From NCBI GenBank assembly GCA_002698995.1, contig PAAX01000001.1:1422-65421 (forward strand): a stretch of 64,000 nucleotides of DNA, in the 5' to 3' direction. This DNA comes from Ignavibacteriota bacterium. Lineage in GTDB: Bacteria > Bacteroidota > Ignavibacteria > Ignavibacteriales > Melioribacteraceae. Each line of letters begins with the position of its first letter. The first letter of the stretch is position 1. The notes beneath the pieces are model-generated. The model was not told the DNA's origin. It saw only the letters and a list, made by a program, of their open reading frames with translations, and did no database searches. Below are positions 1-40,223 of the stretch, piece by piece. Position numbers and translations under genes: made by a program.

Positions 1-1
1 T

Positions 2-169
2 ACAATTACTACTTTCAGAGGGAATGTCTCAAAAATAAATAAAAAGCTCAGAGAAGTATTGAATAATGAAATTGTATTTAATGAATACAGAGTCGTTTCA
101 GAGGGTAAAAGAGGGGCTAAATTTTATGGGATAAAAGCAAATCCAACTAAAATCAAGATTATAAAATAA
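2..169 (+). CDS. 3' end of an ORF truncated by the window edge, product unknown
   Basis: Frame 2 is open from the first base to TAA at 167-169 (...FNEYRVVSEGKRGAKFYGIKANPTKIKIIK*). No start is visible and no motif is recognised. Confidence 0.3.
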   Translation, partial: TITTFRGNVSKINKKLREVLNNEIVFNEYRVVSEGKRGAKFYGIKANPTKIKIIK

Positions 170-189
170 ATTGCCGCAACATTGCCAAA
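167..189 (+). promoter_or_regulatory. 23-nt conserved motif TAAATTGCCGCAACATTGCCAAA upstream of hsdR (copy 1 of 2)
   Basis: 21/23 identical to 8700-8722. Both copies begin with the stop codon of the preceding ORF. Both lie exactly 23 nt upstream of a second shared block, TTAATTTT(AC/GT)ATTA (212-225 and 8745-8758). The motif contains the direct half-sites ATTGCC N5 ATTGCC. Confidence 0.35.
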
Positions 190-230
190 TTAATTCTTTA
201 AGAATTATTACTTAATTTTACATTACAATT

Positions 231-2495
231 ATGAAAAATTCATCAGAACAAGATGCACGTATTCGAATTGATGATCAGCTTAAAAAAGCTGGTTGGGATA
301 TAACTAATATTAGAGCGGATGTTCCTCTTAGATTAGATTCACACATTAATGAGCCTACTGTTGAGTATAATGTCAATAGTAAACTTGGTAGAGTAGATTA
401 TGTACTTTATGCTGATAATGGTAGACCATTAGCAGTAATCGAAGCAAAAAGGTCTGCACTTCAACCTTATAGTGCAAAACAGCAAGCATTACCTTATGCT
501 AAAAATATTGGGGCGCCTTTCATATTTTTAACAAATGGTGAGTTGATATATTTTTGGGATTATCAGAATGATGATGCAAGAACTGTTAATTCATTTTATT
601 CCCAGAGAGACCTTCAAAGACTCCTTCATTTGAGGGAAAGTAAATTACCTCTTGCTACTGTTGAGATACCTAATACATATATAAGAAACGGTGAATTAAG
701 AACTGTGCGTGAATACCAGCAAGATGCAATGAAGGCAATGGATCATGCATTTGAATTAGGTAAGAAAAGATTTTTAATAGAACTGCCCACAGGTACAGGG
801 AAAACTGATTTAATTAGTTTGTACCTCAAAAGACTAATAGAAGCTAATAGAGCTGAAAAAATTCTATTTCTTGTGGATAGAGAACAATTAGCAAAGCAAG
901 CATTGGAAGCATTAAATGATATAATGAGTAATCAATATGGAAGCTATTGGTTAAAACCTGGAACTATTAGGGAAGAAAAACAAATAACGGTCTGCTTGCT
1001 GCAAACAATGATATCGAGATATGATGAATTCAGTAGCGGTTATTTTGATGTTGTTATAGCTGATGAATGTCATCGTTCAATTTATGGTTCTTGGCAAACT
1101 GCTTTAACACATTTCGATGCTTTTCATATTGGGCTTACCGCAACTCCCGCAATGTATATTGAGAGAAATACATTTCAATTTTATCACTGTAAGAATGAAT
1201 CACCAGATTTTACTTTGCCTATTAAAACGGCTTTTAAAAAAGAATTTCTAGTTCCATATAAATTTGCTGAAAGAATTACTGTTTTAATGTCCGAAGGTGC
1301 TGATAAAGAAGACGAGCATTATGATCCTGCTCAGTTTGAGAAAAAATGGACAAATGAGAAGTCCAATAGATTAATGATGGAGGAGTTTGACAGATTAGCT
1401 CATGAAAATTACAAAGATTTGGCGTCTGGATTAGATGAAGGCCCTGGTAAAACCATTGTATTTGCAATAACTAAGAATCACGCTGCAAGGTTAGCTCAAT
1501 ATCTTAATGAATTGCACCCTGATACAAAGGGTAAATATGCTGAGGTAATTACCAGTGATATTTCAAATGCGGATGAGTTAATTAGACAATTTAAACGAGA
1601 GTCTTATCCAAAAGTTGCAGTGAGTGTAGGTATGCTGGATACTGGATTTGATTGTCGAGAAGTAATAAATCTTGTAATGTGCAGAAGAGTGCGTTCACCA
1701 ATTCTTTATCAACAGATGAGAGGCAGAGGAACAAGAACTTGTCCGAGGATTGATAAGAAAAAATTCATGATCTATGACTTTTTCGAGAATCATAAATATT
1801 TTAATGATAGTGATACCGATATTTTTTCAGGAGTAGGTGGAGGCTCTTATAAAGTATCCAAACCTCAGAAGCCTAAGACGCCAAGAGAACTCATTGAACT
1901 AGGTCTAGAAGATGAATGGCTTTATAGTGTTAATTATGTTGAAGTTGGTCCACAAGGAGAACGAATAGATAAAAAACAATACATTACTAATTGGGAGAAA
2001 ACAATCAGTGATTCTGAAGATGATCCAATTATTAGCAAAATAAAAATGCAGGCTAAGGCGGATGATTCCGAAAAAGATAAGTATGCTCTCTCTAATAATG
2101 AAGAAAATCTATTAACCTCTAGACTTAATAATCCAGACTATTATTTTAATGAGAACAATTTAAGACAAGCATATCGTGAACCAAGTGGAAATATAATTGA
2201 TTTTATCAAATATGCATTAGGTTTATCGAAACAAAAGTCTAAGAACGAAATTATTACTGAAAATTTTAATGCTTGGTTAGTAACAAAATCATTAACGCCT
2301 GAGCAAGCACAGTATTTAGCAATTTTGAAAAACAGAGGAATAGTAAATGGTAAGGTTGAAATAGATGATCTATTCAAACCTCCACTTTCAATACTAAATG
2401 CTGCTGGATTAGGAATTGAACTATTTGGTGAAGATGGCTTGAAAACGGTAATTAATGATATGAATGCTATTTTATTTAATGTCAACGCAGGATAA
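231..2495 (+). CDS. hsdR: Type I restriction enzyme R subunit (HsdR)
   Basis: N-terminal PD-(D/E)xK core (RVDYVLY...LAVIEAKR). SF2 helicase motif I ELPTGTGKT, motif II IADECHRS and motif VI QQMRGRGTR. C-terminal EcoEI-R-C-like tail. A 3-nt gap separates it from hsdM. Confidence 0.9.
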   Translation: MKNSSEQDARIRIDDQLKKAGWDITNIRADVPLRLDSHINEPTVEYNVNSKLGRVDYVLYADNGRPLAVIEAKRSALQPYSAKQQALPYAKNIGAPFIFLTNGELIYFWDYQNDDARTVNSFYSQRDLQRLLHLRESKLPLATVEIPNTYIRNGELRTVREYQQDAMKAMDHAFELGKKRFLIELPTGTGKTDLISLYLKRLIEANRAEKILFLVDREQLAKQALEALNDIMSNQYGSYWLKPGTIREEKQITVCLLQTMISRYDEFSSGYFDVVIADECHRSIYGSWQTALTHFDAFHIGLTATPAMYIERNTFQFYHCKNESPDFTLPIKTAFKKEFLVPYKFAERITVLMSEGADKEDEHYDPAQFEKKWTNEKSNRLMMEEFDRLAHENYKDLASGLDEGPGKTIVFAITKNHAARLAQYLNELHPDTKGKYAEVITSDISNADELIRQFKRESYPKVAVSVGMLDTGFDCREVINLVMCRRVRSPILYQQMRGRGTRTCPRIDKKKFMIYDFFENHKYFNDSDTDIFSGVGGGSYKVSKPQKPKTPRELIELGLEDEWLYSVNYVEVGPQGERIDKKQYITNWEKTISDSEDDPIISKIKMQAKADDSEKDKYALSNNEENLLTSRLNNPDYYFNENNLRQAYREPSGNIIDFIKYALGLSKQKSKNEIITENFNAWLVTKSLTPEQAQYLAILKNRGIVNGKVEIDDLFKPPLSILNAAGLGIELFGEDGLKTVINDMNAILFNVNAG

Positions 2496-2498
2496 TCA

Positions 2499-4238
2499 AT
2501 GAACCAAGATTTAAGAAGAAAATTAGACAGAATTACAAATATTCTATTTGCAGGTGGAGTAAATAATCCCATCACATATATTGAACAAATATCATATTTC
2601 ATTTACCTTAAACTTTTAGATGAGAGAGAAAATGAAATAGCCTTGAAGGGAAGGTTAGGTGGCAAAAATATTACTTCACTTTACCCTGGACAAGCTGAAA
2701 AATATAAATGGTCTAGTTGGAGACATTTTTCTGGTGAAAAGCTATTAAAAGTTGTTCGTGATGATGTCTTTCCATACATGGCAAATGTAAATAGTGATAA
2801 TACTCATATAGCAATTTACTTTAGAGATGCTGTACTTCAAGTTCATGATCCTAATATTCTTAAGCAAGTAATTGATGAAATAGATACAATTAATTTTTCT
2901 AGACTTGGCTCGGATGTTAAGGGAGATATTTATGAATATATGTTGACTTATCTTAATACAATGGAAGGTTCATTGTTGGGGCAATTCAGAACACCAAGAC
3001 AGATAAGAAAAATGATGGTTGAAATGGTTGATCCAGATATTGGTGATACAATTTATGATCCAGCTTGTGGAACTGGTGGGTTTCTTATAGATGCCTTGGA
3101 ACATATTATGGCAAAGTATTCAGAATCAAAAGAAGAAGTTCCAATTTATGGTGAAGAATGGTTAATAAACAAATACCTCGATAGATTATCAGATGATGAG
3201 CAGCTTCAATTTGAGGATGAGGAGTTTTCTTTTGACAATAATCTGAAGTTAAGAACAAAGTTATTAAATGAATTAAAAGAAGAGAACAAAAACCTACAAA
3301 CTTACCTAAAAGGAAATGGCGATCTTATCCCAAATTGGGAAATTCTTGAGCAATCGATTTATGGAGTTGATGTAAGCAGACAAATAATGAGAATTGCTAC
3401 GATGAATATGGTTCTTCATGGAATAATGAAAGCAAATATTAAGAGAGGTAATACACTAAGTGAAATGGGGGGTTTGACTGATGATGATCTCTATAGAAAA
3501 TACAAAGTGATATTATCTAATCCTCCTTTTGCTGGAGTATTACCAAAAGAATCTATAAGAGAAAACTTACCTACCAATACAAAAAAGAGTGAATTGTTAT
3601 TCCTTGCTGTAATGATGGATCAATTAGCTGAAGGCGGGACTTGTGCGGTTATTGTTCCCGAGGGTCTATTATTTGGTTCTACAAATGCTCATTTGGAGCT
3701 TAGAAAGAAACTTGTTGAACAGTTTAATCTTTTGGCTGTAGTTAGCTTGCCTGCAGGTGTTTTTAAGCCTTACGCAGGTGTTAAGACTTCAATTCTGGTA
3801 TTTAAAAGACCTTACAAAGATTCTTTATTTTCCGATAAGGTAGCTACAGAAAAAGTCTGGTTTTATGAGATTAAAAATGATGGATATGATCCCGATAAAA
3901 TAACTGGTGGAGGAAGACCAGAGACAGCGGAAGCAAACGATATACCTAGATTTATGAGAGAGTGGAAAAATTTCAAGAATAGTAATTTCAAAGAATTTCC
4001 TGGAATTGAGGGGGAAACAAGACTACCACATAATTCTAGGGAACCAAAATGTTGGTGGACTAATATTGGTGAAATATTAGATAAAAATTATAATATATCC
4101 GCCTCAAATTATAAGCCATCTATTGAAACATTAAATAGTGAAATTGAACCATCAGAAATAATCAACAACATACTTATTATTGAAAAAAATATTGTTAACA
4201 AATTAGAATCTTTAAGTAACAATTTGCGAAATGACTAA
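2499..4238 (+). CDS. hsdM: Type I R-M N6-adenine DNA methyltransferase subunit (HsdM)
   Basis: Motif I DPACGTGGF and motif IV LSNPPFAG. The N-terminal region is HsdM_N-like. Overlaps hsdS by 8 nt. Confidence 0.9.
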   Translation: MNQDLRRKLDRITNILFAGGVNNPITYIEQISYFIYLKLLDERENEIALKGRLGGKNITSLYPGQAEKYKWSSWRHFSGEKLLKVVRDDVFPYMANVNSDNTHIAIYFRDAVLQVHDPNILKQVIDEIDTINFSRLGSDVKGDIYEYMLTYLNTMEGSLLGQFRTPRQIRKMMVEMVDPDIGDTIYDPACGTGGFLIDALEHIMAKYSESKEEVPIYGEEWLINKYLDRLSDDEQLQFEDEEFSFDNNLKLRTKLLNELKEENKNLQTYLKGNGDLIPNWEILEQSIYGVDVSRQIMRIATMNMVLHGIMKANIKRGNTLSEMGGLTDDDLYRKYKVILSNPPFAGVLPKESIRENLPTNTKKSELLFLAVMMDQLAEGGTCAVIVPEGLLFGSTNAHLELRKKLVEQFNLLAVVSLPAGVFKPYAGVKTSILVFKRPYKDSLFSDKVATEKVWFYEIKNDGYDPDKITGGGRPETAEANDIPRFMREWKNFKNSNFKEFPGIEGETRLPHNSREPKCWWTNIGEILDKNYNISASNYKPSIETLNSEIEPSEIINNILIIEKNIVNKLESLSNNLRND

Positions 4239-5328
4239 AGTTAATATTAAATTTGAACTTGCTATAAGTGATGAGACCGGTGGAAATAAGAAGGTCAAAA
4301 AAAATGAATACTTAGTTGACGGAAGATATCCAATTATTGATCAAGGGAAAGAAATTATATCTGGTTATACAAATGATGAAAACAATCTTTTCAAATTTAA
4401 TCAACCCTTAATTTTGTTTGGAGATCATACACGAATATTCAAATACATTGATTTTCCTTTTTGTCTTGGAGCTGATGGTGTAAAAGTATTACTTCCACAT
4501 AAAAGTTTTGATGCAAAGTATTTGTATTATTTTTTTAATACTCTCAACATTGATAGCAAAGGTTATAGTCGACATTTTAAGTTCATAAAGAAATTTGAAA
4601 TACCCTTAATTGCCAAATCAGAACAAAAAAGAATAGTTGAAATATTAGATCAAGCTGATGAAATAAGACAATTACGTAAACAAGCTGATGATAAATCAAA
4701 TGAAATAATCTCTTCACTTTTTTATAAAATGTTTGGTGATTTAGAAAAAGATACACTACTGCATGAAGTAATGGAACTTAAATATGGGAAGGGATTACCT
4801 AAATCAAAAAGAAGAAAGGGCAATATTCCTGTTTATGGTTCAAATGGAGTTGTGGACTACCATGATAAACATTTTATGAAAAACGATACAATAATTGTAG
4901 GAAGAAAAGGCAGTGCAGGGGAAGTTCAACTTGTCCGAGGAGCAAGTTGGCCTATTGATACAACATTTTATACTGAAATAATAAAAAATGATGTAGAATT
5001 AGAATATTTATTCTTCGCATTGAAGCAACTTGATTTGAGAAAGTTTGCAATTATTACAGGGGTTCCTGGAATAAATAGGGACACTATACTTAATCAAAAA
5101 ATTGCTATACCTGATCCAAAGTTACAAAGTAGATTTAGTCGGATTTATAATCAAATATCAGATTTAAATGAAAAACAACAATGCTCAAGTAACAGCATTG
5201 ATTCTCTTTATACTAATCTTTTATCTAAAGCTTTTGATGGTAGTCTTACAGAAAGATGGCGTGAAGGTAGAATGAAAGAATTGTTACAAGAGATGGAAGA
5301 GCAAAAGAAATATTTAGGAATTAATTAA
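4231..5328 (+). CDS. hsdS: Type I R-M specificity subunit (HsdS)
   Basis: Two target-recognition halves are separated by the conserved helical spacer EQKRIVEILDQADEIRQLRKQADDKSNEI. A second spacer lies at the C-terminus (LQSRFSRIYNQISDL...LLSKAF). Position follows hsdM. Confidence 0.85.
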   Translation: MTKVNIKFELAISDETGGNKKVKKNEYLVDGRYPIIDQGKEIISGYTNDENNLFKFNQPLILFGDHTRIFKYIDFPFCLGADGVKVLLPHKSFDAKYLYYFFNTLNIDSKGYSRHFKFIKKFEIPLIAKSEQKRIVEILDQADEIRQLRKQADDKSNEIISSLFYKMFGDLEKDTLLHEVMELKYGKGLPKSKRRKGNIPVYGSNGVVDYHDKHFMKNDTIIVGRKGSAGEVQLVRGASWPIDTTFYTEIIKNDVELEYLFFALKQLDLRKFAIITGVPGINRDTILNQKIAIPDPKLQSRFSRIYNQISDLNEKQQCSSNSIDSLYTNLLSKAFDGSLTERWREGRMKELLQEMEEQKKYLGIN

Positions 5329-5338
5329 GGCAATCAAA

Positions 5339-7777
5339 ATGAAATTGCATGAAGCAATTCAGCAAGTACTTTTAGAAGAAAATAGAGAGCTAAACTCTTC
5401 TCAAATTGCTCACAAAGTTAATCAGAAGAAACTCTATACAAGAGGTGATGGCCAACCTGTTCCTTCAAGTCAGATAAGTGCTAGAGTGCGGAAATATCCC
5501 GCACTATTTAATTATAATGGTTCTATTATTGGATTAAAACAATGGCTCGTCAAAAAAGAACATAGTGTAAATAAAATGAAATTGCATGAAGCTATTCAAC
5601 ATATATTATTAGACAAAAATAGAGAATTAAGTGCATTCCAAATTTCTAAGATAGTTAATGAAAAAGGACTTTATCAGAGAAAGGATGGGCAACAAGTTCC
5701 ATCAAAACAGGTTCTTGCAAGAGTAAGGAATTATCCACTTTTATTTTATAGCGATAATAATAGGATCGGTCTTAATGCATGGAGATTAAAATTTGCTAAC
5801 AAAGAAAGTTTACTATATAAAGAAATACTTTATATACTAGAACAAAATAGTGAAGCAATGGATCCAAAAGTCATTGCGGATACAATAGTTAAGAGAGAAA
5901 TATATTTTAAGGATGACAAAACCAGAGTAAATGCTGAAGATGTATTATTTGAAATAAGGAAAAATGAAAATACATTTCAAATTATTAACGGCTTGGTTCA
6001 ACTTTCAAACTGGGACTTTGATGAGGATTATATCAAGGAGGCGGTTTATGATATTATGGTTAAAGAGGAAATAAGTACTAAGGATGAATTAGATTTTAGT
6101 AATTCACTGAAGAACTTTAGAGTCGGCAACTTCAAACCATATAATCATTCTCAATCATTAAAATTAAAGCCAATAACTTTGCTCTTTGGACCTAATAGTT
6201 CTGGGAAATCAAGTTTAATACATTCTATTTTATATTTACAAAATGCATTTGATCAAAAAGATTTAGATCCTCATTATATGAAAATTAGCGGTGACTCAGT
6301 TGATTTGGGCGGTTTTAGGCAACTTATACACAGGAATGATATACAAAGACGATTAGAATATGAAATTGAAATTGACAAATCTCAGCTTAACACAGAATTG
6401 CAAAAAACTTTAATGGAAATTAATTCAATTAAGCTAAAGATTGAAATAGGCCAACCACTTAAAGAAAAATTCAAAAGACAAATTATCAAAGCTCATGAAG
6501 ATGGACAATTCTTTTATGAAAACTCACCAACAGGGGAATTTGAATCTGTTGGTAAACCTCGAGTTCAAAAGTATGATATAGTGCTCGATGAAGAAACAAT
6601 GTTAAGCTTTGGTTATAGAGGAAATGATTTGTTTAAAATTGATCAATTCAATTATTCTAATAAAATAATATCGAAAATTATTCAAGCAATAATTTTAAGC
6701 AATACTACGACTAGTGAAATAGATGATGATGATTATAATAAAGTGCAGGATTCTATAGATAATATATTGAGCGAGTTTTACGTTTTAACGACTGATATAA
6801 TACCCAGCAGAATTAGAACTATCTCTAAAACGACAATGGATAAGATCATTGCCATTAATAAAGAAAATAGAGAATTGGAATTTGCAAATACTATTAGAAT
6901 GTTTTTACCAGTGGCTTTAAATGAAATTTTAGAGGGTCTTTATGATGTTGCGAAATTGTCTTTATCCACTTTGGTTTATCTAGGACCTATTCGATCTTAT
7001 CCACCTCGTCATCTATCATTTGAAGCAATTAATAATTCTAATTACCAATCTGGTGGTGCTCTTGCTTGGGATAAATTAAGAGACAATGAAGAAGTCAGAA
7101 AAAAGATTAATGCTTGGTTAAGAAATACTGGCAAATTAAAATCAAGGTACCAAATTGAAGTAAGAAAATATGTTGATCCAAAAAGCAATGAGTTTAATTC
7201 TGTTTTAGAAGATATAGAATCAGAACAGAATTTTGAATTAGAAAAATTAGGAAATTGGAATGGTCTTCCAATTGACAAGATTATAGATAGTATGAAGAGT
7301 GACGCAGTTGAGGGAATTAAGGAACTTGTACTTGTAGATTCTGATGGAACCGTAGTAAGTCATAGAGATGTTGGCTTTGGAATAAGTCAGGTCATTCCAG
7401 TTCTAGTATACACTTTAGCCAATAAAAATAAAATAGTTATGATAGAACAACCGGAAATTCACTTGCATCCAGCGCTTCAGGCAGAGCTTGGTGATGTAAT
7501 GATTGAAAGTGCTTTAGGAGAAAACAAAAATACACTTATTCTTGAAAATCATAGTGAGCACATGATTCTACGAATACTAAGGAGAATTAGGGAAACATCA
7601 AGCGGAGAACTACCAGAGGGTAAAATTCCAATTAAACCAGAAGACGTATCAGTTATCTACATTCAAAACACTAGGGAAGGTGCAGTATTAAACAATATAC
7701 CTATTACTGAAGACGGTGATTTTTCGAAGCGATGGCCAGATGGGTTTTTCCCCGAAAGAGCAGAGGAACTAAACTAA
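5339..7777 (+). CDS. ABC-type (AAA_15/AAA_21-like) ATPase with three N-terminal HARE-HTH-like winged-helix modules and a DUF3696-like C-terminus
   Basis: wHTH modules span aa 1-69, 80-148 and ~156-225, each ending GL..W or QLSNW. Walker A LLFGPNSSGKSS. Walker B/D-loop IVMIEQPEIHLHPALQ. C-terminal HSEHMILRILRRIRE...WPDGFFPE. It starts 10 nt after the hsdS stop. Confidence 0.8.
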   Translation: MKLHEAIQQVLLEENRELNSSQIAHKVNQKKLYTRGDGQPVPSSQISARVRKYPALFNYNGSIIGLKQWLVKKEHSVNKMKLHEAIQHILLDKNRELSAFQISKIVNEKGLYQRKDGQQVPSKQVLARVRNYPLLFYSDNNRIGLNAWRLKFANKESLLYKEILYILEQNSEAMDPKVIADTIVKREIYFKDDKTRVNAEDVLFEIRKNENTFQIINGLVQLSNWDFDEDYIKEAVYDIMVKEEISTKDELDFSNSLKNFRVGNFKPYNHSQSLKLKPITLLFGPNSSGKSSLIHSILYLQNAFDQKDLDPHYMKISGDSVDLGGFRQLIHRNDIQRRLEYEIEIDKSQLNTELQKTLMEINSIKLKIEIGQPLKEKFKRQIIKAHEDGQFFYENSPTGEFESVGKPRVQKYDIVLDEETMLSFGYRGNDLFKIDQFNYSNKIISKIIQAIILSNTTTSEIDDDDYNKVQDSIDNILSEFYVLTTDIIPSRIRTISKTTMDKIIAINKENRELEFANTIRMFLPVALNEILEGLYDVAKLSLSTLVYLGPIRSYPPRHLSFEAINNSNYQSGGALAWDKLRDNEEVRKKINAWLRNTGKLKSRYQIEVRKYVDPKSNEFNSVLEDIESEQNFELEKLGNWNGLPIDKIIDSMKSDAVEGIKELVLVDSDGTVVSHRDVGFGISQVIPVLVYTLANKNKIVMIEQPEIHLHPALQAELGDVMIESALGENKNTLILENHSEHMILRILRRIRETSSGELPEGKIPIKPEDVSVIYIQNTREGAVLNNIPITEDGDFSKRWPDGFFPERAEELN

Positions 7778-7778
7778 A

Positions 7779-8702
7779 ATGATAAAAGAATATGCTCTTG
7801 ATCCGCAAGTAATGGCTAGTTGGGATAACTTTAGATTCTTTAGTTCGCAATTTGGCTGTCAATACGGACGGATGATATCAAAATTTCCGAGTGGATGGAA
7901 AAGAATAGTATTTGAATTATGTCAAAATAATCATGGTATAAGTGAAATTCAGTTAAAGAAAATTGAAGTAAATCTTTATCAACGAGAATTTGACCGTAAA
8001 TTTGTAAAAAATTCTAGGGATTATGTTAATAGTTTAGGATGGATTGAGAATGCATTACGTTCTAACCAGAATAAACCTTTTCATGCAATTATAAGCTCTG
8101 AAGTGAGAGAGAGTGTACAATTGGTAGACGATATAGACGATTCTAATGAAAAATGGAAAGTGGATATAGGTTTACCCGTACCAAGAACTGCTAATCATTT
8201 TGTAAAAGTTTTCACCCCATTTTTTCTCTTAGCAAATGATATAATTTTTGTTGAACCACATTTTGATCCACATACATCTAAATGGTATCGAGCTTTTCGA
8301 ATCTACTTCAGGAAGTTATTTGAAAATGGAAAACGATATCGAAAAATAGAATTACACACTTCGGCTAAAATGACTCCAAAAATATTTGCTGATGAATTTA
8401 TTATCAAGTTTGAGCAGTTTTTCACCGAAAATTACGGAATTCATGTTTATTTATGGGAACGAATCGATAATAACGAAAATTTTCATCCTCGATATTTGCT
8501 GACAGAAGTTGGAGGTCTGAGAATTGATTATGGTTTTGATGACATAAGTGAAGATGAAACTACTGATATTTCTTTACTGAGTGATATAGTCTATGAAAAA
8601 AGAAAAAGTAACATTGAAGAATCCTCTACTGTATTTAATTTAGTTGCAAAGATTCTGTTTTCGAAAAAAAATACTAGGTTGACATACTCTATACTTCAGT
8701 AA
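7779..8702 (+). CDS. Hypothetical protein, translationally coupled partner of the ABC ATPase
   Basis: The ATG lies 1 nt after the ATPase TAA stop (7775-7777). The ORF is 307 aa with no motif I can assign. Coding potential is judged from length, coupling and composition. Confidence 0.75.
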   Translation: MIKEYALDPQVMASWDNFRFFSSQFGCQYGRMISKFPSGWKRIVFELCQNNHGISEIQLKKIEVNLYQREFDRKFVKNSRDYVNSLGWIENALRSNQNKPFHAIISSEVRESVQLVDDIDDSNEKWKVDIGLPVPRTANHFVKVFTPFFLLANDIIFVEPHFDPHTSKWYRAFRIYFRKLFENGKRYRKIELHTSAKMTPKIFADEFIIKFEQFFTENYGIHVYLWERIDNNENFHPRYLLTEVGGLRIDYGFDDISEDETTDISLLSDIVYEKRKSNIEESSTVFNLVAKILFSKKNTRLTYSILQ

Positions 8703-8722
8703 ATTGCCACAACATTGCTAAA
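8700..8722 (+). promoter_or_regulatory. 23-nt conserved motif TAAATTGCCACAACATTGCTAAA (copy 2 of 2)
   Basis: See 167-189. It sits in the 75-nt gap upstream of the HARE-HTH/GIY-YIG-like gene. Confidence 0.35.
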
Positions 8723-8777
8723 ACTTTATATCCTCTATTTGTATTTAATTTTGTATTAGAAATTAAAAAGAGGATAT

Positions 8778-9614
8778 ATGACACTCCACGAAGAAATAAA
8801 GAACATACTTTTAGAAAATGGTAAGCCACTAACCACTTCTCAAATTGCTGACTTTGTAAATGATCGAAAAATATACTTAAAAAGAGATAATTCAAAAGTA
8901 TCCTCATTTCAGATTCATGGACGAACTAAAAATTATTCCAATATATTCTTAAGGAATAAAACTATAGTTGGACTTAGAAATCGTGACGAAGCTTTGATGA
9001 ATTCAGATGAGTTTAATTCCGAAGAACCAAACTATCAAGCAAATAATCCAATTATTAATTTCATGTTTAATCAGGGCCATACCGAATTTAATGATCTTAT
9101 AAATGTAGATAAAATAAAGTTTCTGATTGATAATGGGTTTATAAATTTGGGCAAAATAAAACATTTATTGATAGAAGGGCTTCCGCAAATTTCAGAACTT
9201 CAATCAAGTGGGCTTTATGCTATTACAGCTTATGAAAATTATAAACCGAGCTATTATAACCATCAAGAAGCAATTGAAAATGGGAATGTAGTATCGCCAT
9301 GGGAAGCTTCGAGATTAATAAATAAATGGGTAGATGGGGCAGAGATCCTCTATTATGGACTTGCTGGAGCGAAATCAAGTCGACCATTAAAAGTAAGGTT
9401 GAATGATTTACTTAAACATGCATTTGGTGATATAACTGAAAGAGGTCCACATAAAGGGGGAGAAATAATATGGCAATTAAAGAATTGGCAAGATTTTGAA
9501 TTATGGGCACTCCCAACTGGAGCACCACCAGAACCCAGAGATAAAGAATATTTGCTGCTCAAGAAATTTTACGAGACTACAGGGAAACTGCCATTTGCTA
9601 ATAGACAATTTTAA
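8778..9614 (+). CDS. HARE-HTH-like winged helix fused to a GIY-YIG-like nuclease domain
   Basis: N-terminus MTLHEEIKNILLENGKPLTTSQIADFV...IVGLRN parallels the modules in the 5339 ORF. The C-terminus has SGLYAIT ... ILYYGLAG ... RLNDLL ... PHKGG ... DKEYLLL ... LPFANRQ, matching the GIY / YIG / R / H / E / N order of GIY-YIG nucleases with a long insert between GIY and YIG. Confidence 0.6.
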   Translation: MTLHEEIKNILLENGKPLTTSQIADFVNDRKIYLKRDNSKVSSFQIHGRTKNYSNIFLRNKTIVGLRNRDEALMNSDEFNSEEPNYQANNPIINFMFNQGHTEFNDLINVDKIKFLIDNGFINLGKIKHLLIEGLPQISELQSSGLYAITAYENYKPSYYNHQEAIENGNVVSPWEASRLINKWVDGAEILYYGLAGAKSSRPLKVRLNDLLKHAFGDITERGPHKGGEIIWQLKNWQDFELWALPTGAPPEPRDKEYLLLKKFYETTGKLPFANRQF

Positions 9615-9629
9615 TAAAGAGGTAATAAA

Positions 9630-10994
9630 ATGAGAAGTAATTACACTGAAGTAATCGAATGTCCTAAGTGTGGAGAACAAATTAAATTGACTGAGGCCTT
9701 GATAGGTCATATTGAATCAGATCTTAAAAAAACCTTATCAGAAGAAAATAATCAAAAAATTGAACAAGCAAAGAAAGAAGCCGCTAAAAAGGCATTAGAA
9801 GAACGTGAAAATGAATTTGTAGATTTGAGAAATCAACTTGCAGAAAAGCAAACAAAAATCGATAAGCTTAATTCCAAAGAACTCGAATTGAATAAGAAAG
9901 CAAGAGAGTTAGAAGAAAAAGAAAATTCCATTACCAATGAATTGGAAAAACGCCTTAACAGTGAGAGGACTAAATTAATAGCACAAGGACGTGAACAAGC
10001 TACAAAGAATGTAACGCTTGAAGTTCAAGACCTAAAAGAGCAACTTAATGAGGCAACTAAAAGGGTCGAAAATTTGACGAAAAAAGAACTTGATCTTCGT
10101 AAGGAAAAGCGAGAGTTAGAAAATGCTAGGAAGGAATTGGAATTGGAAAAACAGCGAGAAATAGATTCAATGCGAGAAGAGATTTATAAACAAGCAAAGA
10201 ATGAGTCTGATGTAGATTACAAATTAAAAATTAGGGAGCGAGATGAGCAGTTAAAGCAGATGAATAAAAAGATTGAAGAACTTCAAAGAAAAGCTGAACA
10301 AGGATCTCAGCAATTGCAGGGTGAAGCACAAGAATTAGAACTAGAAGATTTTTTGAAATATAATTTCCCTTTAGATGATATAGAACCCATTGCCAAAGGT
10401 CAAAAAGGTGCTGATATAATACAAAAAGTTAAAAATGAATTCGGGGCTGAATGTGGTATAATATTATGGGAATCAAAAAGAACAAAGGATTTTGGAAATA
10501 AATGGATAGCTAAATTAAAAGAAGACCAGAGAGAAACCAAAGCAAATATTGCAGTAATTATTACGGAAGTACTTCCAGAAAATATAAATAATTTTGGAGT
10601 GATTGATGGAGTATGGGTAGGGAGTTTTCAATCAACTCTTGGTATTGCCACAGCGCTGCGTGAAAATCTTATCCAAATATTTAACCTACGTCAATCAGAA
10701 GTTGGAAAGAATCAAAAGATGGACGCTCTTTATGGATATTTAACGAGTCATGAATTTGCACAAAGAATTGAATCAATTATTGAAGCATTTGATGCTTTGG
10801 AGGGACAAATTAAAACCGAAAGAAAAGCATTTGAGAAACAATGGAATGAAAGGGCTAAACTGCTCTCTCAAGTAATGAAAAATACTGTTGGTCTTCATGG
10901 CGATCTAAAAGGGATAATAGGCAAAACCTTACCTGAAATAGAGGGATTATCCTTAGAGGACAAGTCATCTTTCTCTGAGCTAAATTTAATTTAA
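9630..10994 (+). CDS. DUF2130-family protein (zinc-ribbon N-terminus, long coiled coil, restriction-endonuclease-like C-terminal domain)
   Basis: CPKCGEQ at the N-terminus, then about 230 aa of E/K-rich coiled coil. C-terminus reads GADIIQKV...GIILWESKRTKDFGNKWIAKLKEDQ, a D...ExK-type core typical of DUF2130. An SD-like AGAGG lies upstream. Confidence 0.7.
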   Translation: MRSNYTEVIECPKCGEQIKLTEALIGHIESDLKKTLSEENNQKIEQAKKEAAKKALEERENEFVDLRNQLAEKQTKIDKLNSKELELNKKARELEEKENSITNELEKRLNSERTKLIAQGREQATKNVTLEVQDLKEQLNEATKRVENLTKKELDLRKEKRELENARKELELEKQREIDSMREEIYKQAKNESDVDYKLKIRERDEQLKQMNKKIEELQRKAEQGSQQLQGEAQELELEDFLKYNFPLDDIEPIAKGQKGADIIQKVKNEFGAECGIILWESKRTKDFGNKWIAKLKEDQRETKANIAVIITEVLPENINNFGVIDGVWVGSFQSTLGIATALRENLIQIFNLRQSEVGKNQKMDALYGYLTSHEFAQRIESIIEAFDALEGQIKTERKAFEKQWNERAKLLSQVMKNTVGLHGDLKGIIGKTLPEIEGLSLEDKSSFSELNLI

Positions 10995-11120
10995 CTTGAT
11001 TATACATTAAATCAGACACAATAAAATAGGATTAATTTCAAAATGAGTGAACATTGAATGTAGTTGATTATCATATTTTTTTGAATCATTTAGAATTAAA
11101 AATATACCTAACTAATTTTT

Positions 11121-11143
11121 GGCAGCAAACTTAATTTGCTGCC
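11121..11143 (+). other. Perfect 9-bp stem hairpin GGCAGCAAA-cttaa-TTTGCTGCC
   Basis: Read directly from the sequence. Only a weak T-tract follows, so a terminator role is uncertain. Confidence 0.3.
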
Positions 11144-11346
11144 TATTTATAGTAAGATAGAAAATTTAATAAGAACGTAAGATTCAGAAATTCTGTTTTT
11201 GAGAATAATATTATTAATGAACAAATCGAATTCGATGTTTAAGTTAAAGTGTCACTCTTTTGTCACTGGTTTTAATAAAATGCTCGATTTTGGCGTGAAT
11301 TCGCAATAATTATAGATTATGAGCAGACTCCCTGACTCTCCGCGAG

Positions 11347-11382
11347 AGCCTGTTTAATTAAGTTTAAGCAGGCTTTTTTATT
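11347..11382 (+). terminator. Rho-independent terminator-like hairpin plus T-tract with no adjacent ORF
   Basis: AGCCTGTTTAA-ttaagt-TTAAGCAGGCT (one G-U position) followed by TTTTTTATT. It lies about 350 nt after the DUF2130 stop and about 200 nt before the next gene. Confidence 0.5.
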
Positions 11383-11576
11383 ATCTCCAATAGAGATCAT
11401 AATACTCAGTACCTTAATAAGTTAATTGGAAGTCTTCTTTTTTGATTTTTTTTAATTAACGGCATCGAATTAAATATTTAATTAAAAGTTCAAATTCCTC
11501 TCTTTATTAATTGTTAGAATTATTCTCTTGCAAACATTTAAGTGGTTTATTAACTTTGAAATAAAAAGTACTTTGT

Positions 11577-12194
11577 ATGAGAAAAGAAAAAAATTACATT
11601 CAAGATATTGCTGAAATTCGCTCTATGATGGAACGATCTTCCAAATTCCTTTCGCTATCCGGATGGGCTGGTGCAATGGCTGGTATTTATGCTTTAATCG
11701 GATTTTATATTGTTAATTCCATTCTGGATTTTAATCCCACTTTAATTTTGTACGATACAATAGATTCATTTCCCATTATTAATTATGTCTTTATTACGGC
11801 GATTTTAGTTTTAGTGCTTGCAGTTGCAACTGCAGTTTATCTTTCTTACAAAAGAGCAGTAAAAATAGGCGAGAGTATCTGGAATTCTACTTCTAAAAGA
11901 CTACTTGCCGATATGGGAATACCGTTAGCAGTTGGCGGAATTCTGATTTTAATTTTCATTTCAAAGAATCTTATCGGTTTAATTATTCCTTTTACGTTAC
12001 TCTTTTATGGTTTGGCTTTATACAACACAAGCAAGTTTACTTATAATGAAGTAAAGTACTTGGGAATTATTCAGATGTTACTGGGATTAATTGCTCTATT
12101 ATTTATTGAGTATAGTATTTATTTTTGGGCACTTGGATTTGGAATGGTTCATATTATTTATGGAGTTTATCTTCACTATAGATATGAAAGGTGA
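11577..12194 (+). CDS. Integral membrane protein, function unknown
   Basis: Several hydrophobic helices. 4-nt overlap with the downstream regulator gene. Confidence 0.7.
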   Translation: MRKEKNYIQDIAEIRSMMERSSKFLSLSGWAGAMAGIYALIGFYIVNSILDFNPTLILYDTIDSFPIINYVFITAILVLVLAVATAVYLSYKRAVKIGESIWNSTSKRLLADMGIPLAVGGILILIFISKNLIGLIIPFTLLFYGLALYNTSKFTYNEVKYLGIIQMLLGLIALLFIEYSIYFWALGFGMVHIIYGVYLHYRYER

Positions 12195-13220: not shown

Positions 13221-15896
13221 TTAAAAGATTACTCTAAATTTTGAGCCGAAACCTTTTTTGCTTTCAACTTCTATATGTGCATTGTTCATTTCGCAATAGT
13301 TTTTAACAAGAGCTAATCCTAGTCCGTTACCTTCAAATTTTCTGGAATAACCTTGATACTCTTGTCTGAACGGCTCAAATATTAATGATTTATTTTCTTC
13401 ATTAATTCCTATGCCGGTATCGGCAACTTCTGCAATTAATTTTTCTTTATTGAAGTAAGTTATCACTTCAATTTGTCCTTTATTAGTATACTTAATTGCG
13501 TTATCAATAAGGTTGGCAAAAATTTGTCTTATTGTATATTCATCAACTGTAATTACAGAGGAATCATTACAAAGATTTGATTTTAGTGTTAAACCTTTTG
13601 TTTTTGCGGTTAATGAAAACTCGGCAATCAATTTTTTAAGAACTTCATTAATATCAACTTCTTGAGGATTATAATCATAACTGCCGGCTTGAACATCCGA
13701 CATATCAAGGATTAGATCAATTGTTCTAATCAATCTGTTTCCGGCATTAGAAATAATATCAAAACTTTCTTTTAGATCTTCATCAATATCATTACTTATT
13801 TCATCTTTTAATAAACTTGTAAAACTAAGCATTGCATTAATAGGAGTTCTAATTTCATGTGACATCTGCGCAAGGAACTCAGATTTAAGTCGGTTCGATT
13901 TTTCTGCTTCTTCTTTTGCTTTTTTTAATTCTTCTTCATGAATTTTCTTTTCTGTAATATCTCGTATTACTACTAGTACAGTATCTTCTGAATTTTTGAT
14001 TATTCTTGCATTGAAATATTTTGTTCCGGCTGGGACTTCAAGGTAATAATCAAATTGAGTAAGTCTATCATTTCTAATTGTAGAATTAATTGCATCCATA
14101 TATCTACTTACTAAATCAGCTTCTAAAAATTGATTTATATTATTGCCGATTAAAGTAGATTTTGGATTTACCAGCAGTTCATCTTTAGGTGTGTGAATGT
14201 CAACATAATTTCCGTCTTTATCCAGTACAAAGAGAATATCCGGAATTGTATCAATAAGTGATTTCAATCTTTTTTCATTCTTCTCGATTATTTCTCTATT
14301 TAAAATTTCGGAAGTAATATCTTCTTTGTAACCATATGCTTCGTATAAATTTTCATTTATTTGTTTGCATAAACCTCTTGATCTTATAAATTTTATTTTA
14401 TTAGAATTAGTTATAATTCTGTACTCAACATCAATATTATGAAATCGATTTTTTACACTCTCCTTAATTTCACTATATAACTTTTCTTTGTCATCAGGAT
14501 GAACATAATCAATATAATTTGCAAAGCTGTTTCCTATTTTAGATTGAGGTCCAACTTCAAGCAAATCATTTATAATAGGGGAGAAGTAATTTGAAAGAAT
14601 ATTAGCATCTTTGTCAAAAGTTGTTTTCCAAATGTTAATCGGTATTGATGAAACAACTCTTTCATATTCTTCAAGTATTTGTTCTTTTGCATTTTCTGCA
14701 TTTTTTCGTTCATCAATATTTTGAATAATTCCAATTACTTTGGTCGGAATTCCGTTCTCATCTCTTTGCGATATTTTTCCGGTATCGTGGTACCAAAAAT
14801 ATTCATCTTGTGAATTTTTTATTCTGAACTCAACATTGTATGAATCTGCTGAACCATTTAAATAATTTTGAAGTGCGGTACTTGTTTTTTTTCTGTCATC
14901 GGGATGCATAATCTCAAATACTGAATTATAACTGCTTGGTGCATTTTTACCAGAATAACCGAGTGTTATATTTCTGTTTGCATCGGAATGAATTTCTCCG
15001 CTTTTTATGTCCCATTCCCACCACGAAAGTTTTGCAGTATCCATAGCGAGATTAAGTTTTTCAACAATTGATAAGAGCTTTGCTTCCGAATCTCGAATCT
15101 GCTCTTCATTATTCTTACTCTCAGTTATATCTTCCTTAATTCCCAGAAAATGAGTTATAATATTGTTGAAATCCTTGATAGGAGTAATTGTTAAATATTC
15201 CCAAAAGTATTCACCATTTTTCTTTCTGTTGCAGATTTCACCTTCCCAGCTTCTCCCCGAAAGTATTGTTTCCCACATTTCTTTATAAAAGTTTTTATCA
15301 TGATTCCCGGACTGAATAAAATTAAGTTTTTTATTCTTAACTTCTTGAAAAGAGTAACCGGTTAGTTCCTCAAATTTTGTATTAACGTAAATGAGTCTCC
15401 CTTCAATATCGGTTACAACAACTGTTGCCGGAGAACTTTCAATTCCTTTGGTTAAAATTTCTAAGCGTCTGTCTGTATTAATCTTGTCGGTTATATCAGT
15501 AATAAAACCATTCAGAAAAATTGCATTTCCTAATTCGTCATATTCAATTAAGGTAAAATCATCAACCCATTTAGGTTGTTTATCTTTAGTTATTATTCGG
15601 TATGGTTTATGCCGGTAAGATTCATTTTTAAGATTAATATTCGCTAAGATTTCATTCTGAACTCTATTAATATCATCGGGATGAACAATTACATCATAAA
15701 GTTTTTTCTTAGTATAAAATTCGTCTACTGAATAGCCGTAAAGATCAATGCAGTTTTCGGTTGCATATTTAACATCCCAGTTCTCGGAAACCTTCCATCT
15801 AAAAAATACAATATGACTTTTAGAAAATACTTTTGGAAGAACTGTTGAAATGTCGAATTGCTCTTTAACTTCTCCTTTTTCTTTCTCCATACTCAA
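13221..15896 (-). CDS. Multi-PAS sensor histidine kinase
   Basis: H-box SHEIRTPINA, N-box NLIDNAIKYT, G-boxes DTGIGI and GNGLGLA. Repeated PAS/PAC segments upstream. Confidence 0.9.
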   Translation of the reverse strand: MSMEKEKGEVKEQFDISTVLPKVFSKSHIVFFRWKVSENWDVKYATENCIDLYGYSVDEFYTKKKLYDVIVHPDDINRVQNEILANINLKNESYRHKPYRIITKDKQPKWVDDFTLIEYDELGNAIFLNGFITDITDKINTDRRLEILTKGIESSPATVVVTDIEGRLIYVNTKFEELTGYSFQEVKNKKLNFIQSGNHDKNFYKEMWETILSGRSWEGEICNRKKNGEYFWEYLTITPIKDFNNIITHFLGIKEDITESKNNEEQIRDSEAKLLSIVEKLNLAMDTAKLSWWEWDIKSGEIHSDANRNITLGYSGKNAPSSYNSVFEIMHPDDRKKTSTALQNYLNGSADSYNVEFRIKNSQDEYFWYHDTGKISQRDENGIPTKVIGIIQNIDERKNAENAKEQILEEYERVVSSIPINIWKTTFDKDANILSNYFSPIINDLLEVGPQSKIGNSFANYIDYVHPDDKEKLYSEIKESVKNRFHNIDVEYRIITNSNKIKFIRSRGLCKQINENLYEAYGYKEDITSEILNREIIEKNEKRLKSLIDTIPDILFVLDKDGNYVDIHTPKDELLVNPKSTLIGNNINQFLEADLVSRYMDAINSTIRNDRLTQFDYYLEVPAGTKYFNARIIKNSEDTVLVVIRDITEKKIHEEELKKAKEEAEKSNRLKSEFLAQMSHEIRTPINAMLSFTSLLKDEISNDIDEDLKESFDIISNAGNRLIRTIDLILDMSDVQAGSYDYNPQEVDINEVLKKLIAEFSLTAKTKGLTLKSNLCNDSSVITVDEYTIRQIFANLIDNAIKYTNKGQIEVITYFNKEKLIAEVADTGIGINEENKSLIFEPFRQEYQGYSRKFEGNGLGLALVKNYCEMNNAHIEVESKKGFGSKFRVIF

Positions 15897-40100: not shown

Positions 40101-40223
40101 TTAGGATTAGCATTAATAAAAGAATATTGCAGAATAAATAATGCCGAAATCACTTTTTCCAGCGAAAAGGGAAATGGAACAACTTTTACAATTATTTTCA
40201 AAAATTATGAAACCAATAAATAA
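37131..40223 (+). CDS. Multi-PAS sensor histidine kinase
   Basis: H-box SHEIRTPVNS, N-box NLIDNAIKYT, G-boxes DSGIGI and GNGLGLA. Confidence 0.9.
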   Translation: MLDDYKNINGDPDLLIRLLEKKVNDLIHENVLLRNENKNLKITLNSGKVFWWEYNLITGEVNINPNLIQNLGYTSDEINEFDDQLKFLVYPEDYSKLIKAIEKLIAGNDNYISIDYRIKDKNEKTVWISDTISVFERDDEGTPIKLLAISINNDEKKRFEIALHKMLNNSLFGFVIFKDEKIVFVNENASKLIGFSKEEILSFTKDDIARIIYPDDIELFIKQYREYETYNPSIHKFIFRIVNKSGKIIWLNANFSNLIFNGNETLQLTFIDITDLIRTEEEKLQISEDFIKTIQELNIHIFRFKKVNDEFINTFSAGKLASELDISKSSHSRDERNILTVFGKEHYEIFHENFEKAFDGNETVFSFSKNKKWYTVNLVPYQLDSKGNTIEILGKINDITSRYETEQKIRKTNERLEIAHSAGNIAWWELDYETQTVECDKNYATILGFDESEFPISFEERLKLIHPNHLPDVEEKVQEHIKRKTDFYEITYLAKTKAGNYKWVYDRGKIISRNEFDEPSKMIGVFMDVSQLKEAEAKYKLEAEKGNAILKAIPDSMFIFDKEYRYVDYYVKNPDLLFAPPEEFLGKRVDEVLPPINNENILDQHFQLVTEHPGKVNTFEYSVIKEKEPRYFESRVVFTGSFYLVMDREITNEKRHHLKVNEIAKRFRLATKTAQMGIWDWDISKDKLLWDSGMYKIYETEKHNSIINFDFWRVRIFPEDRILVEKAIEDALKFDKEFNPEYRIVTGSGKTKYIKAFGQVFKDSNNNPIRMIGLNMDITERKLMEIELEKAKEKAEQSDKLKSEFLAQMSHEIRTPVNSLLSFASLIREEMKEIITEDVEESFKVMSNAGRRIIRTIDLILNMSEVQTKSYEAVYEKIDLYEEIITEQNHEFKFIAREKGLNFSVNNNADNTIVIGDKYTVGQIFNNLIDNAIKYTREGFVNVNFYNKNKNLCVEIEDSGIGISEEYKKNIFIPFTQEDSGYTRKYEGNGLGLALIKEYCRINNAEITFSSEKGNGTTFTIIFKNYETNK

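Follow-up and report, generated by a model that had tools for sequence, protein, structure and literature searches.

The Menshen defence system, which consists of NsnA, NsnB, and NsnC, was reportedly introduced by Millman and coworkers in 2022. NsnB has been described as an OLD-type ABC ATPase with a non-canonical Walker B motif (EN) and a GxG signature, for whose C-terminal DUF3696 a contact with the inactive-PIN domain at the N-terminus of NsnC is predicted (Li et al. NAR 2025; PMC12065111). NsnA is a sensor of the ParB-DUF262 (+ ParBDB) type. According to the same study the C-terminal effectors of NsnC vary; one of them, PB-PLD1, is an MIT_C-like domain of the PLD fold with an acidic residue and an HDR motif, and many BrxL proteins carry this domain at their C-terminus, too. 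In 27.9% of the cases Menshen lies next to type I restriction–modification (R-M), type III R-M, or BREX (PMC12065111). Here we describe a locus in a 64-kb stretch of DNA from an Ignavibacteriota bacterium (contig PAAX01000001.1; the whole stretch is called the window below). At positions 231-10994 of the window a type I R-M operon runs into a Menshen-like gene pair without NsnA and is followed by a nuclease cassette. We read these seven + strand genes as a composite defence locus consisting of three layers, the R-M system, the Menshen-like pair, and the nuclease cassette, under one local control element, and we give this reading a probability of about 0.6.

Further known systems share some traits with the locus. 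PARIS (AriA/AriB), Septu (PtuA/PtuB), and AbiL/RloA-RloB are, like the Menshen-like pair, two-gene ATPase/effector modules in which a scaffold holds the effector until a trigger arrives, and RloA/RloB and PrrC are likewise embedded in type I hsd loci. In contrast to PARIS, Septu, and AbiL, the effector in the window is PLD/MIT_C-like and not a Toprim, HNH, or anticodon nuclease, and DUF3696 is present. RtcR homologs linked to R-M genes have been reported to head defence 'superoperons' (Makarova et al. 2014, PMC4012209; Bell et al. 2024 on CoCoNuT, PMC11090510). As in these superoperons, a series of co-directional defence genes, type I R-M among them, is headed in the window by an RtcR homolog with a CARF domain, and coiled-coil PD-(D/E)XK proteins occur beside R-M (RmuC and ShdA there, DUF2130 here). 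The window differs from them in that it contains neither CoCoNuT nor McrBC, in that its regulator is devoid of the sigma-54 AAA+ and HTH_8 domains, and in that the sigma-54 promoter is replaced by another conserved element, which is reused before several cassettes. Finally, the sixth gene product of the locus resembles the type IV enzymes Ahi29725I and Apa233I (PMC11037411), in which a winged-helix (wH) domain is joined to a GIY-YIG domain, by an N-terminal DNA reader followed by a putative GIY-YIG-type domain. Here, however, the reader is a HARE-HTH and not a DpnI-type wH domain, the nuclease-like domain is divergent with weak GIY-YIG scores, and the family comes with a conserved leader and with partner genes (a 150-aa protein, ARPP-1, DUF2130, or DUF2779).

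The listing of the open reading frames (ORFs) of the window reproduced the seven same-strand genes and all the spacings given in a preliminary description of this DNA. The genes hsdR (231..2495), hsdM (2499..4238), hsdS (4231..5328), the ATPase gene (5339..7777), g5 (7779..8702), g6 (8778..9614), and g7 (9630..10994) are separated by 3, -8, 10, 1, 75, and 15 nt, hsdM and hsdS thus overlapping by 8 nt. The first three genes are a complete type I R-M system in one operon. HsdR comprises an N-terminal nuclease domain, a superfamily 2 helicase, and an EcoEI_R_C tail (Pfam ResIII 1e-32, EcoEI_R_C 5e-20, HSDR_N 6e-11; PADLOC REase_I 1.5e-80) and is EcoAI/type IB-like, its NCBIfam match to the EcoAI family (8.5e-79) lying under the cutoff of that family. 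HsdM is a type I N6-adenine methyltransferase (Pfam N6_Mtase 4e-57, HsdM_N 3e-12; PADLOC MTase_I 8e-142), and HsdS is a specificity subunit with two target-recognition domains (two stretches of Pfam Methylase_S; PADLOC Specificity_I 4.5e-72). In a consensus scan the only convincing terminator-like hairpins were found on the + strand after g7 (11121-11143 and 11344-11377), where they close the locus. The earlier remark that no such hairpin occurs between 231 and 8702 was nearly right; the scan gave two matches there (5179 and 5485), both of them weak, intragenic, and on the + strand. The base composition of the region is like that of its surroundings and does not set it apart.

The fourth gene encodes an NsnB-like ABC ATPase of 812 aa. 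Pfam identified AAA_15 and AAA_21 (1e-18), HARE-HTH (6.5e-8), and DUF3696 (24.5 bits; cutoff 22); among the PADLOC models NsnB matched best (1.3e-43), followed by PDC-M55A, HEC-03B, and AriA (4e-23), and AriA, AbiLi, GajA, and PtuA were among the weaker matches. The ABC core (6107-7567) contains the Walker A motif GPNSSGKS, the Walker B motif IVMIEQPE, and the signature GFG, and DUF3696 is situated at the C-terminus (7631-7756). The EQ of the Walker B motif is found in 45 of 48 distinct ATPase homologs, and a GxG signature is the rule. With AAA_15, a C-terminal DUF3696, an altered Walker B motif, and a GxG signature the protein has the features of NsnB; it is analogous and not identical, however, as the published NsnB carries EN in the Walker B motif.

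Directly adjoining, 1 nt past the ATPase stop codon, starts g5 with 307 aa. The AlphaFold2 (AF2) model (mean predicted local distance difference test score, pLDDT, 83) consists of an N-terminal alpha/beta domain and a C-terminal PLD/MIT_C-like domain (~8190-8699). The best Foldseek matches in the PDB were a Streptomyces PLD, mouse PLD3, MITD1, and TrmBL2, all of the PLD fold with probabilities of 0.97-1.0; the E value was ~1e-3, the template modelling (TM) score ~0.3, and the C-terminal domain alone was covered. In an alignment of 59 family members H236 and R238 never vary, D159, E191, and H193 are nearly invariant, and the consensus is LHxRYILTDxGG. A profile of the family was compared with the 1,256 ORFs that include the BrxL of the related locus L106 (related loci carry an L below) and aligned with its MIT_C region (residues 507-636, E 7e-7), pairing ilfvDPhF with IILVDPYI and lHnRYiLTd with QHDRYIQAD, that is, the VDPxF and HxRY motifs. 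Database models recognised g5 hardly at all: at default thresholds no Pfam or PADLOC family matched it, the PADLOC partner models of NsnB, HEC-03B, and PDC-M55A matched neither g5 nor its relatives, a sequence search of the g5 profile against PDB chains gave nothing useful, and in the relatives only traces appeared (Pfam MIT_C in 2/59, at 0.039, and PADLOC BrxL in 2/59). From the PADLOC match to NsnB, the motifs, the fold of g5, and the alignment with the MIT_C region of BrxL we read the ATPase and g5 as an NsnB/NsnC-like pair with an effector of the PB-PLD1/MIT_C type. By likeness to the published description, and not by sequence, the modelled C-terminal domain of g5 would fit this type of NsnC effector. 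The pair had not been recognised as Menshen-like in the preliminary description, nor had g5 as a nuclease-type protein; the three nuclease-type activities counted there become four nuclease-type domains when g5 is added.

The g5 family is not small. A word-index search gave only seven clusters, so that g5 seemed to be a rare protein; the metagenome scan and a full HMMER search overturned this. Exhaustively searched, the family comprises 2,773 clusters at 50% identity with E values up to 1e-3, and 917 with E values up to 1e-30. Ten of these clusters were looked up and all are 'hypothetical protein' or nameless. As the family has no Pfam or PADLOC model, current defence finders would call R-M only at such loci and miss the add-on.

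The genomic company of the pair was assessed by tblastn with the window proteins in the contexts of the first matches and in 80 metagenome loci. The ATPase gene lies directly upstream of g5 in 76 of the 76 loci with room for it. For upstream counts we used 27 non-redundant loci in which 7 kb or more of DNA precede the pair; there the same strand carries hsdM in 20, hsdR in 18, and hsdS in 17 loci. In a second set of 13 loci with 3.5-7 kb, hsdM or hsdS was found upstream in nine. Two HsdR families accompany the pair (64-72% and 33-36% identity to the HsdR of the window). The gap between hsdS and the ATPase gene is mostly -7 to +59 nt, that between the ATPase gene and g5 mostly -4 to +3 nt. An isolate shows the same arrangement: a plasmid of Methylocella tundrae carries genes for a WYL regulator, hsdR, hsdM, and hsdS, a 9-nt gap, an 'AAA family ATPase', a 'hypothetical protein', and SIR2-DUF87. 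Genes 4 and 5 thus do not assort independently of the R-M genes (20/27 and 9/13 loci), independent assortment being the outcome that would have refuted the preliminary description. Apparently the g5 family supplies the effector of a Menshen-like pair with a physical tie to type I R-M operons. Coiled-coil PD-(D/E)XK proteins seem to be recurrent companions of type I + ATPase-g5 loci, with RmuC (coiled coil + PD-(D/E)XK) in four and DUF2130 in three of them (L001, L063, L091). In the wider g5 family g6 follows in 1/34 loci and DUF2130 in 3/34.

In contrast to Menshen the pair thus stands inside an hsdRMS operon, and ParB-DUF262 NsnA is lacking in the window and in the sampled related loci. With Pfam, DUF262 was not found in the seven genes or their flanks, it is absent from the families seen at least twice among 72 neighbour proteins of related loci, and in the remaining long ORFs of the window it is not among the top 25 families of the listing. 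Two further differences are that g5 matches no PADLOC NsnC model and that sensor-type domains, three copies of HARE-HTH, are situated on the ATPase instead of on an NsnA protein.

In L001 a second, paralogous DUF3696 ATPase with a 294-aa partner (1-2536) lies directly upstream of hsdR, one hsdRMS operon thus standing between two ATPase pairs; the g5 profile does not pick up this partner, in which the motif HDRFIIID occurs. A partner of the same type (63% identity) takes the place of g5 in L110 (8133-9907), where the ATPase gene is split by an insertion sequence with a DDE transposase on the opposite strand (6154-9029). The BREX genes of L108 are fragmented, and the g6 ortholog of L001 has a frameshifted C-terminus (239 aa). 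The split ATPase gene, the fragmented BREX genes, and the frameshifted g6 are signs of frequent module decay.

The three tandem HARE-HTH domains of the ATPase (5339-5545, 5576-5782, and 5813-6016) were found with a profile made from the N-termini of g6 relatives (residues 1-69, 2e-31; 80-148, 1e-27; 159-226, 3e-12); against PF05066 copy 1 scored 33.3 bits, over the cutoff of 25.9. Together with residues 1-69 of g6 they account for the four copies of a DNA-reader domain that had been noticed from the letters. Aravind and Iyer are said to have proposed in 2012 that HARE-HTH is a reader of modified DNA in R-M contexts. A 177-nt direct repeat (5336-5512 and 5573-5749, 71% identity, period 237 nt) is the DNA trace of the tandem duplication that gave copies 1 and 2, and the orthologous ATPases of L001 and L011 have two copies only. 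The N-terminus of g6 is 43% and 36% identical to copies 1 and 2, respectively; the identity between the HARE-HTH domains of ATPase and g6 inside one locus amounts to 43% in the window and to 64-67% in L001 and L011. This close mutual relationship would fit a shared ligand. In L012 a free-standing HARE-HTH gene of 125 aa lies in front of the ATPase gene, which suggests a route to the fusion. HARE-HTH is limited to the close relatives of the window: most ATPases of the family are devoid of it and, at 507-650 aa, have no extra N-terminal domain.

We propose that the first layer of the locus is an ordinary type I R-M enzyme and that the second is a transducer–effector pair of the Menshen type without NsnA, joined to the operon at distances that would allow translational coupling. 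By analogy to Menshen, PARIS, and Septu an ATPase oligomer would hold g5 through a contact between DUF3696 and the N-terminal domain of g5 and would release or activate it upon a trigger; the PLD/MIT_C-like domain with its HxR motif would then act as a toxic or nucleolytic effector. The three HARE-HTH domains may have taken over the role of NsnA and, by analogy to work on HARE-HTH and on wH nucleases (PMC11037411), would sense foreign DNA, probably modified, that has got past the type I enzyme.

The main rival to this proposal is that the ATPase and g5 monitor the type I complex and not DNA. Type I R-M loci harbour PrrC, RloC, and RloA/RloB, and the trigger of PARIS is Ocr. Like PrrC with EcoprrI or AriAB with Ocr, the pair would respond to phage inhibition of HsdMS or HsdR or to stalled translocation, whereupon the PLD-like effector would be freed and the infection aborted; HARE-HTH would be an extra of the lineage. 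This explanation is favoured by the hard-wiring of the pair to the 3' end of hsdRMS, which extends over 20 of the 27 loci, two HsdR families, and several phyla, and by the fact that an N-terminal sensor domain is missing from most ATPases of the family and NsnA was not found; the PADLOC match to AriA (4e-23) also speaks for it. On the other hand, the pair occurs without any R-M genes in 7/27 loci, often with nothing but an RtcR-like regulator, and the HARE-HTH fusions point to direct reading of DNA in the clade of the window. We therefore regard monitoring of the type I complex as possible, though rather doubtful.

The last two genes were treated as a second unit in the preliminary description, which was borne out; moreover, they are a separately mobile cassette. 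The protein encoded by g6 (278 aa; AF2 pLDDT 89.5) consists of a HARE-HTH domain (8778-8984), a linker, and a GIY-YIG-like domain (~9129-9611). Against PF05066 g6 itself scores 16.5 bits and stays under the cutoff; 37 of the 44 members of the g6 family match (best 2.8e-9). The C-terminal domain is laid out as beta1 (GxY), an insert, beta2 (YxG), a helix (R...H), beta3, a helix (E), and N, and G145-x-Y147, Y192-x-G194, R207, E257, and N275 are invariant or nearly so in the family. The earlier assignment of this domain to GIY-YIG received weak to moderate support from Foldseek, Pfam, and hhalign. The top Foldseek match in the PDB was R.Eco29kI, at an E value of 0.16, and with the whole model winged-helix matches dominated in the PDB and BFVD, GIY-YIG being weak. 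Pfam GIY_YIG_2 was matched weakly by six of the 44 members (0.047 or worse). In hhalign comparisons with five GIY_YIG_2 domains the GIY, YIG, Arg, and Glu motifs were paired at a P value of 7e-4, at a probability of only 27%. A sequence search of the C-terminal profile against PDB chains gave nothing useful. About 100 full-length relatives of g6 were found in bacteria and archaea, besides forms with the C-terminal domain only and one with reversed order. The same type of HARE-HTH was also seen joined to UDG-family (PF03167) or GIY_YIG_2 domains (P0109, P0110, P0111, and P0118); in P0109 it stands at the C-terminus, behind a nuclease domain of the g6 type, a case of domain shuffling around one reader.

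The protein encoded by g7 (454 aa) comprises a zinc-ribbon-like CxxC at its N-terminus, a long coiled coil, and a DUF2130 domain of the PD-(D/E)XK type (~10221-10958; PF09903, 9.8e-65), the PADLOC matches being coiled-coil matches only. DUF2130 is listed in the PD-(D/E)XK superfamily with function unknown (PMC3424549). In the translation the motifs GADII and WESK are discernible by eye and would be the putative D...ExK; no useful match came from a sequence search against PDB chains.

Upstream context was available for eight loci that carry close relatives of g6. The ATPase pair lies upstream in six of them (window, L001, L011, L103, L105, L110) and BREX in two (L106, L108). Downstream of g6, L108 has DUF2130 directly like the window; other loci have the 150-aa protein, ARPP-1, and then DUF2130, DUF2779, or ADP-ribosylglycohydrolase, DUF2130 being swapped for DUF2779 or other genes in several loci. 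Distant g6 homologs from a GTDB scan (10 loci, mostly on short contigs) had no hsd, ATPase, or DUF2130 genes as neighbours. Since the upstream company varies and the 3' genes are exchangeable, genes 6-7 are, judged from these arrangements, a mobile cassette that prefers the 3' end of modification-based defence operons. In the lineage of the window the close relationship of the HARE-HTH domains and a shared DNA element appear to link the cassette to the operon in front of it.

This element of 22 nt occurs in two copies. Copy 1, AAATTGCCGCAACATTGCCAAA (168..189, + strand), abuts the TAA stop codon of the gene upstream of hsdR and ends 41 nt before the hsdR ATG. Copy 2, AAATTGCCACAACATTGCTAAA (8701-8722, + strand), abuts the stop codon of g5 in the 75-nt gap. 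The element consists of two ATTGC half-sites 11 bp apart. It was matched exactly twice in the 64 kb of the window and never in 100 shuffles. The duplicated motif that the preliminary description saw in the gap corresponds to the ATTGC half-sites; that the gap contains a whole second copy of 168-189 had been missed. In related loci at least 12 copies were found, always co-oriented and 40-80 nt before a start codon. The element precedes g6 in all eight loci (window, L001, L011, L103, L105, L106, L108, L110) and a DuOB-DUF488-DUF488 operon in two (L105 at 11910 and L108 at 7935), which suggests a small regulon of defence cassettes in the lineage of the window. In front of g6, copy 2 passes into a conserved leader (8701..8777), a predicted 5' untranslated region in which the inverted repeat ATCCTCT...AGAGGAT surrounds the ribosome-binding site. 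Over 80 nt this leader is 87% identical in six loci whose g6 proteins are ~55% identical. A hairpin is predicted in it, but with one compensatory pair and several broken pairs an RNA structure is not established. In positions 1-12000 Rfam detected no known RNA family apart from one chance-level snoRNA match.

The gene upstream of hsdR encodes a CARF regulator, which had also escaped notice. Its open frame runs from position 2 to the TAA at 167-169 and is cut by the start of the window. The locus L005 contains the sequence of the window and 2.2 kb more on the left, from which the full regulator was obtained (L005 1417-2391, 324 aa). An RtcR match was found at its N-terminus (Pfam 6e-7; 29.5 bits, cutoff 23.1), together with a weak match to Csm6 CARF (0.002). 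Of an RtcR-type activator the N-terminal domain only is present, without the Sigma54_activat AAA+ domain and HTH_8; at the C-terminus neither Pfam nor a sequence search against PDB chains detected a DNA-binding domain. In L005 a 70-aa ORF without family match (1215-1427) extends 11 nt into the beginning of the regulator gene. With an iterated profile 28 ORFs homologous to the regulator were identified beside ATPase-g5 pairs. Most of them are ~500 aa long and contain CARF, Sigma54_activat, AAA_lid_14, and HTH_8, and from these domains they are full RtcR-like enhancer-binding proteins. In 16 of the 21 loci with the long form the sigma-54 pattern TGGCA[CT]-N5-NTGC starts 0-22 nt past the regulator stop codon, compared with a background of 0.034 per kb. 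The gene after this promoter is hsdR, or the ATPase gene where R-M is missing. The window has AAATTGCCRCAACATTGCYAAA at this position instead. The short form of the regulator was found in the window, in L012 (a metagenome-assembled genome of the Ignavibacteriales), and in L110, and each time the 22-nt element is next to it; in L012 the free-standing HARE-HTH gene follows the element.

We infer that the 22-nt element is the dedicated promoter/operator of both units, copy 1 being predicted to serve hsdRMS-ATPase-g5 and copy 2 g6-g7, and that the short CARF regulator probably acts on it. By analogy to RtcR the regulator would sense a ligand derived from infection or damage, would bind the element, and would induce the units. 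Since the same element heads both units and copy 1 follows the regulator gene, we propose that both are switched on together. The third layer would be a separately promoted set of a HARE-HTH + GIY-YIG-like nuclease and a DUF2130 protein, most likely a type IV-like module that reads modifications. The idea of a modification-dependent backup fits the HARE-HTH fusions and, by analogy, the wH-GIY-YIG type IV enzymes (PMC11037411). The suggestion of the preliminary description that the whole is an integrated system is supported for genes 1-5 (20/27 loci). Genes 6-7 are separately mobile, following the ATPase pair in 6/8 and BREX in 2/8 loci, but carry the same 22-nt element; its presence before each unit speaks for co-regulation and favours integration, so that co-regulation of this cassette is plausible.

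Several observations weigh against the composite locus as we read it. HARE-HTH cannot be the general sensor of the pair, because most ATPases of the family do not have it. The pair is found without R-M in 7/27 loci, e.g., in Geothermobacter, and the g6 cassette also follows BREX, so that each module can probably work alone. Concerning g5, the modelled fold match is marginal, with an E value of ~1e-3 and a TM score of ~0.3 over one domain only, and the Lys of the classical PLD motif HxK(x)4D is replaced by Arg, giving HxR(x)4[D/E]; a nuclease activity is not assured either, because the MIT_C domain of MITD1, its closest structural relative, binds membranes. For g6, 'GIY-YIG-like' is a working assignment that is not established. 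Finally, the OmpR/PhoB-like C-terminus of the regulator is a resemblance of motifs seen by eye (LSPIEFSYYRYF, TFRGNVSKINKKL, and GKRGAKFYGI).

Next to the monitoring of the type I complex four further explanations were considered. First, the type I enzyme itself could replace NsnA as the sensor. HsdRMS, the ATPase, and g5 would then be a five-protein machine in which failed or inhibited restriction leads to release of the effector. Such a machine would be widespread among phyla, and an RtcR-like CARF activator would normally induce it from a sigma-54 promoter. In the lineage of the window this switch would have been rebuilt: the CARF regulator would have lost its AAA+ motor, and the sigma-54 promoter would have turned into an operator of two half-sites that heads interchangeable cassettes (R-M/Menshen-like, HARE-HTH nuclease, and DuOB-DUF488), together a small defence regulon under the control of a ligand, and that may double as a recombination joint for shuffling them. 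This explanation, taken with all its parts, we hold for unlikely.

Second, three autonomous systems could be mere neighbours in a defence island, without common function or regulation. The ATPase pair does occur alone in L002 and L003, g6 follows BREX in L106 and L108, the distant g6 homologs have no link to R-M, and DUF2130 is exchangeable with DUF2779. However, the same-strand adjacency in 20/27 loci, with -7 to +59 nt between the genes, goes far beyond clustering at the level of an island, the identical 22-nt element heads both units and is found nowhere else in the window, and the HARE-HTH domains of ATPase and g6 are closely related. Mere neighbourhood is for these reasons quite improbable.

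Third, the element could be a sigma-54 promoter with a diverged -24 box that is served by another enhancer-binding protein, the short CARF protein not being the activator. The element is identical to the sigma-54 promoter of L087 at 11 of 15 positions (TGGCACGAACATTGC versus TTGCCGCAACATTGC), and its position and spacing are unchanged. It reads TTGCCR-CAACA-TTGC, so that the -12 box and the N5-TTGC spacing are kept; the GG at -24, however, which is near-invariant in sigma-54 promoters, reads TG in each of the at least 12 copies examined, and the linked regulator is devoid of Sigma54_activat in all three loci seen. A sigma-54 promoter is defined by GG at -24 and GC at -12 (TGGCAC-N5-TTGC), and the element does not have this form. 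We consider this third explanation distinctly unlikely. Fourth, it was our first idea that the two copies are att-like direct repeats or recombination joints left by insertion of the 8.5-kb hsdRMS-ATPase-g5 segment between the regulator gene and g6, as both copies abut a TAA stop codon and together bracket exactly genes 1-5, as L012 and L110 show regulator, element, and ATPase pair without hsdRMS, and as module boundaries coincide with the element in many loci; this was set aside as very improbable, since the element is always co-oriented at 40-80 nt before the next start codon of many unrelated operons, heads operons without a second flanking copy, and occupies the exact place of the sigma-54 promoter of homologous loci with the N5-TTGC spacing kept, and since no integrase or transposase was found within 1-11.5 kb by ORF listing and Pfam.

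The building blocks of the composite locus are all of known kinds: type I R-M, NsnB/NsnC, RtcR-type regulation, reader–nuclease fusions, and coiled-coil PD-(D/E)XK proteins. As far as our literature searches show, there is no earlier description of type I operons under RtcR/sigma-54 control that are regularly extended at the 3' end by an NsnB/NsnC-like pair without NsnA, and the same holds for the g5 family, the triple HARE-HTH fusion, and the short regulator with a replacement element common to several cassettes. A pair devoid of the supposed Menshen sensor is a natural test of what triggers NsnB/NsnC, be it fused DNA readers, the R-M complex, or transcriptional induction. As whole R-M operons stand behind an RtcR-like activator and a sigma-54 promoter in many loci, the question arises how inducible restriction spares the unmethylated host. 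The short regulator and the 22-nt element are a compact case of regulatory rewiring across several defence cassettes.

Outside the locus, the region at 31-46 kb of the window was suspected to contain BREX; it was checked and is not BREX. Two multi-PAS histidine kinases with ~32% mutual identity (13224-15896, - strand, and 37131-40220, + strand) flank housekeeping genes and appear unrelated to the locus. DUF7149, DUF7814, a methylase of the Eco57I type, and a specificity domain (TaqI_C) are joined in a single chain of 1,280 aa encoded at 55888-59727 (+ strand); this protein resembles a type IIG R-M fusion and would therefore be a second R-M system within the window.

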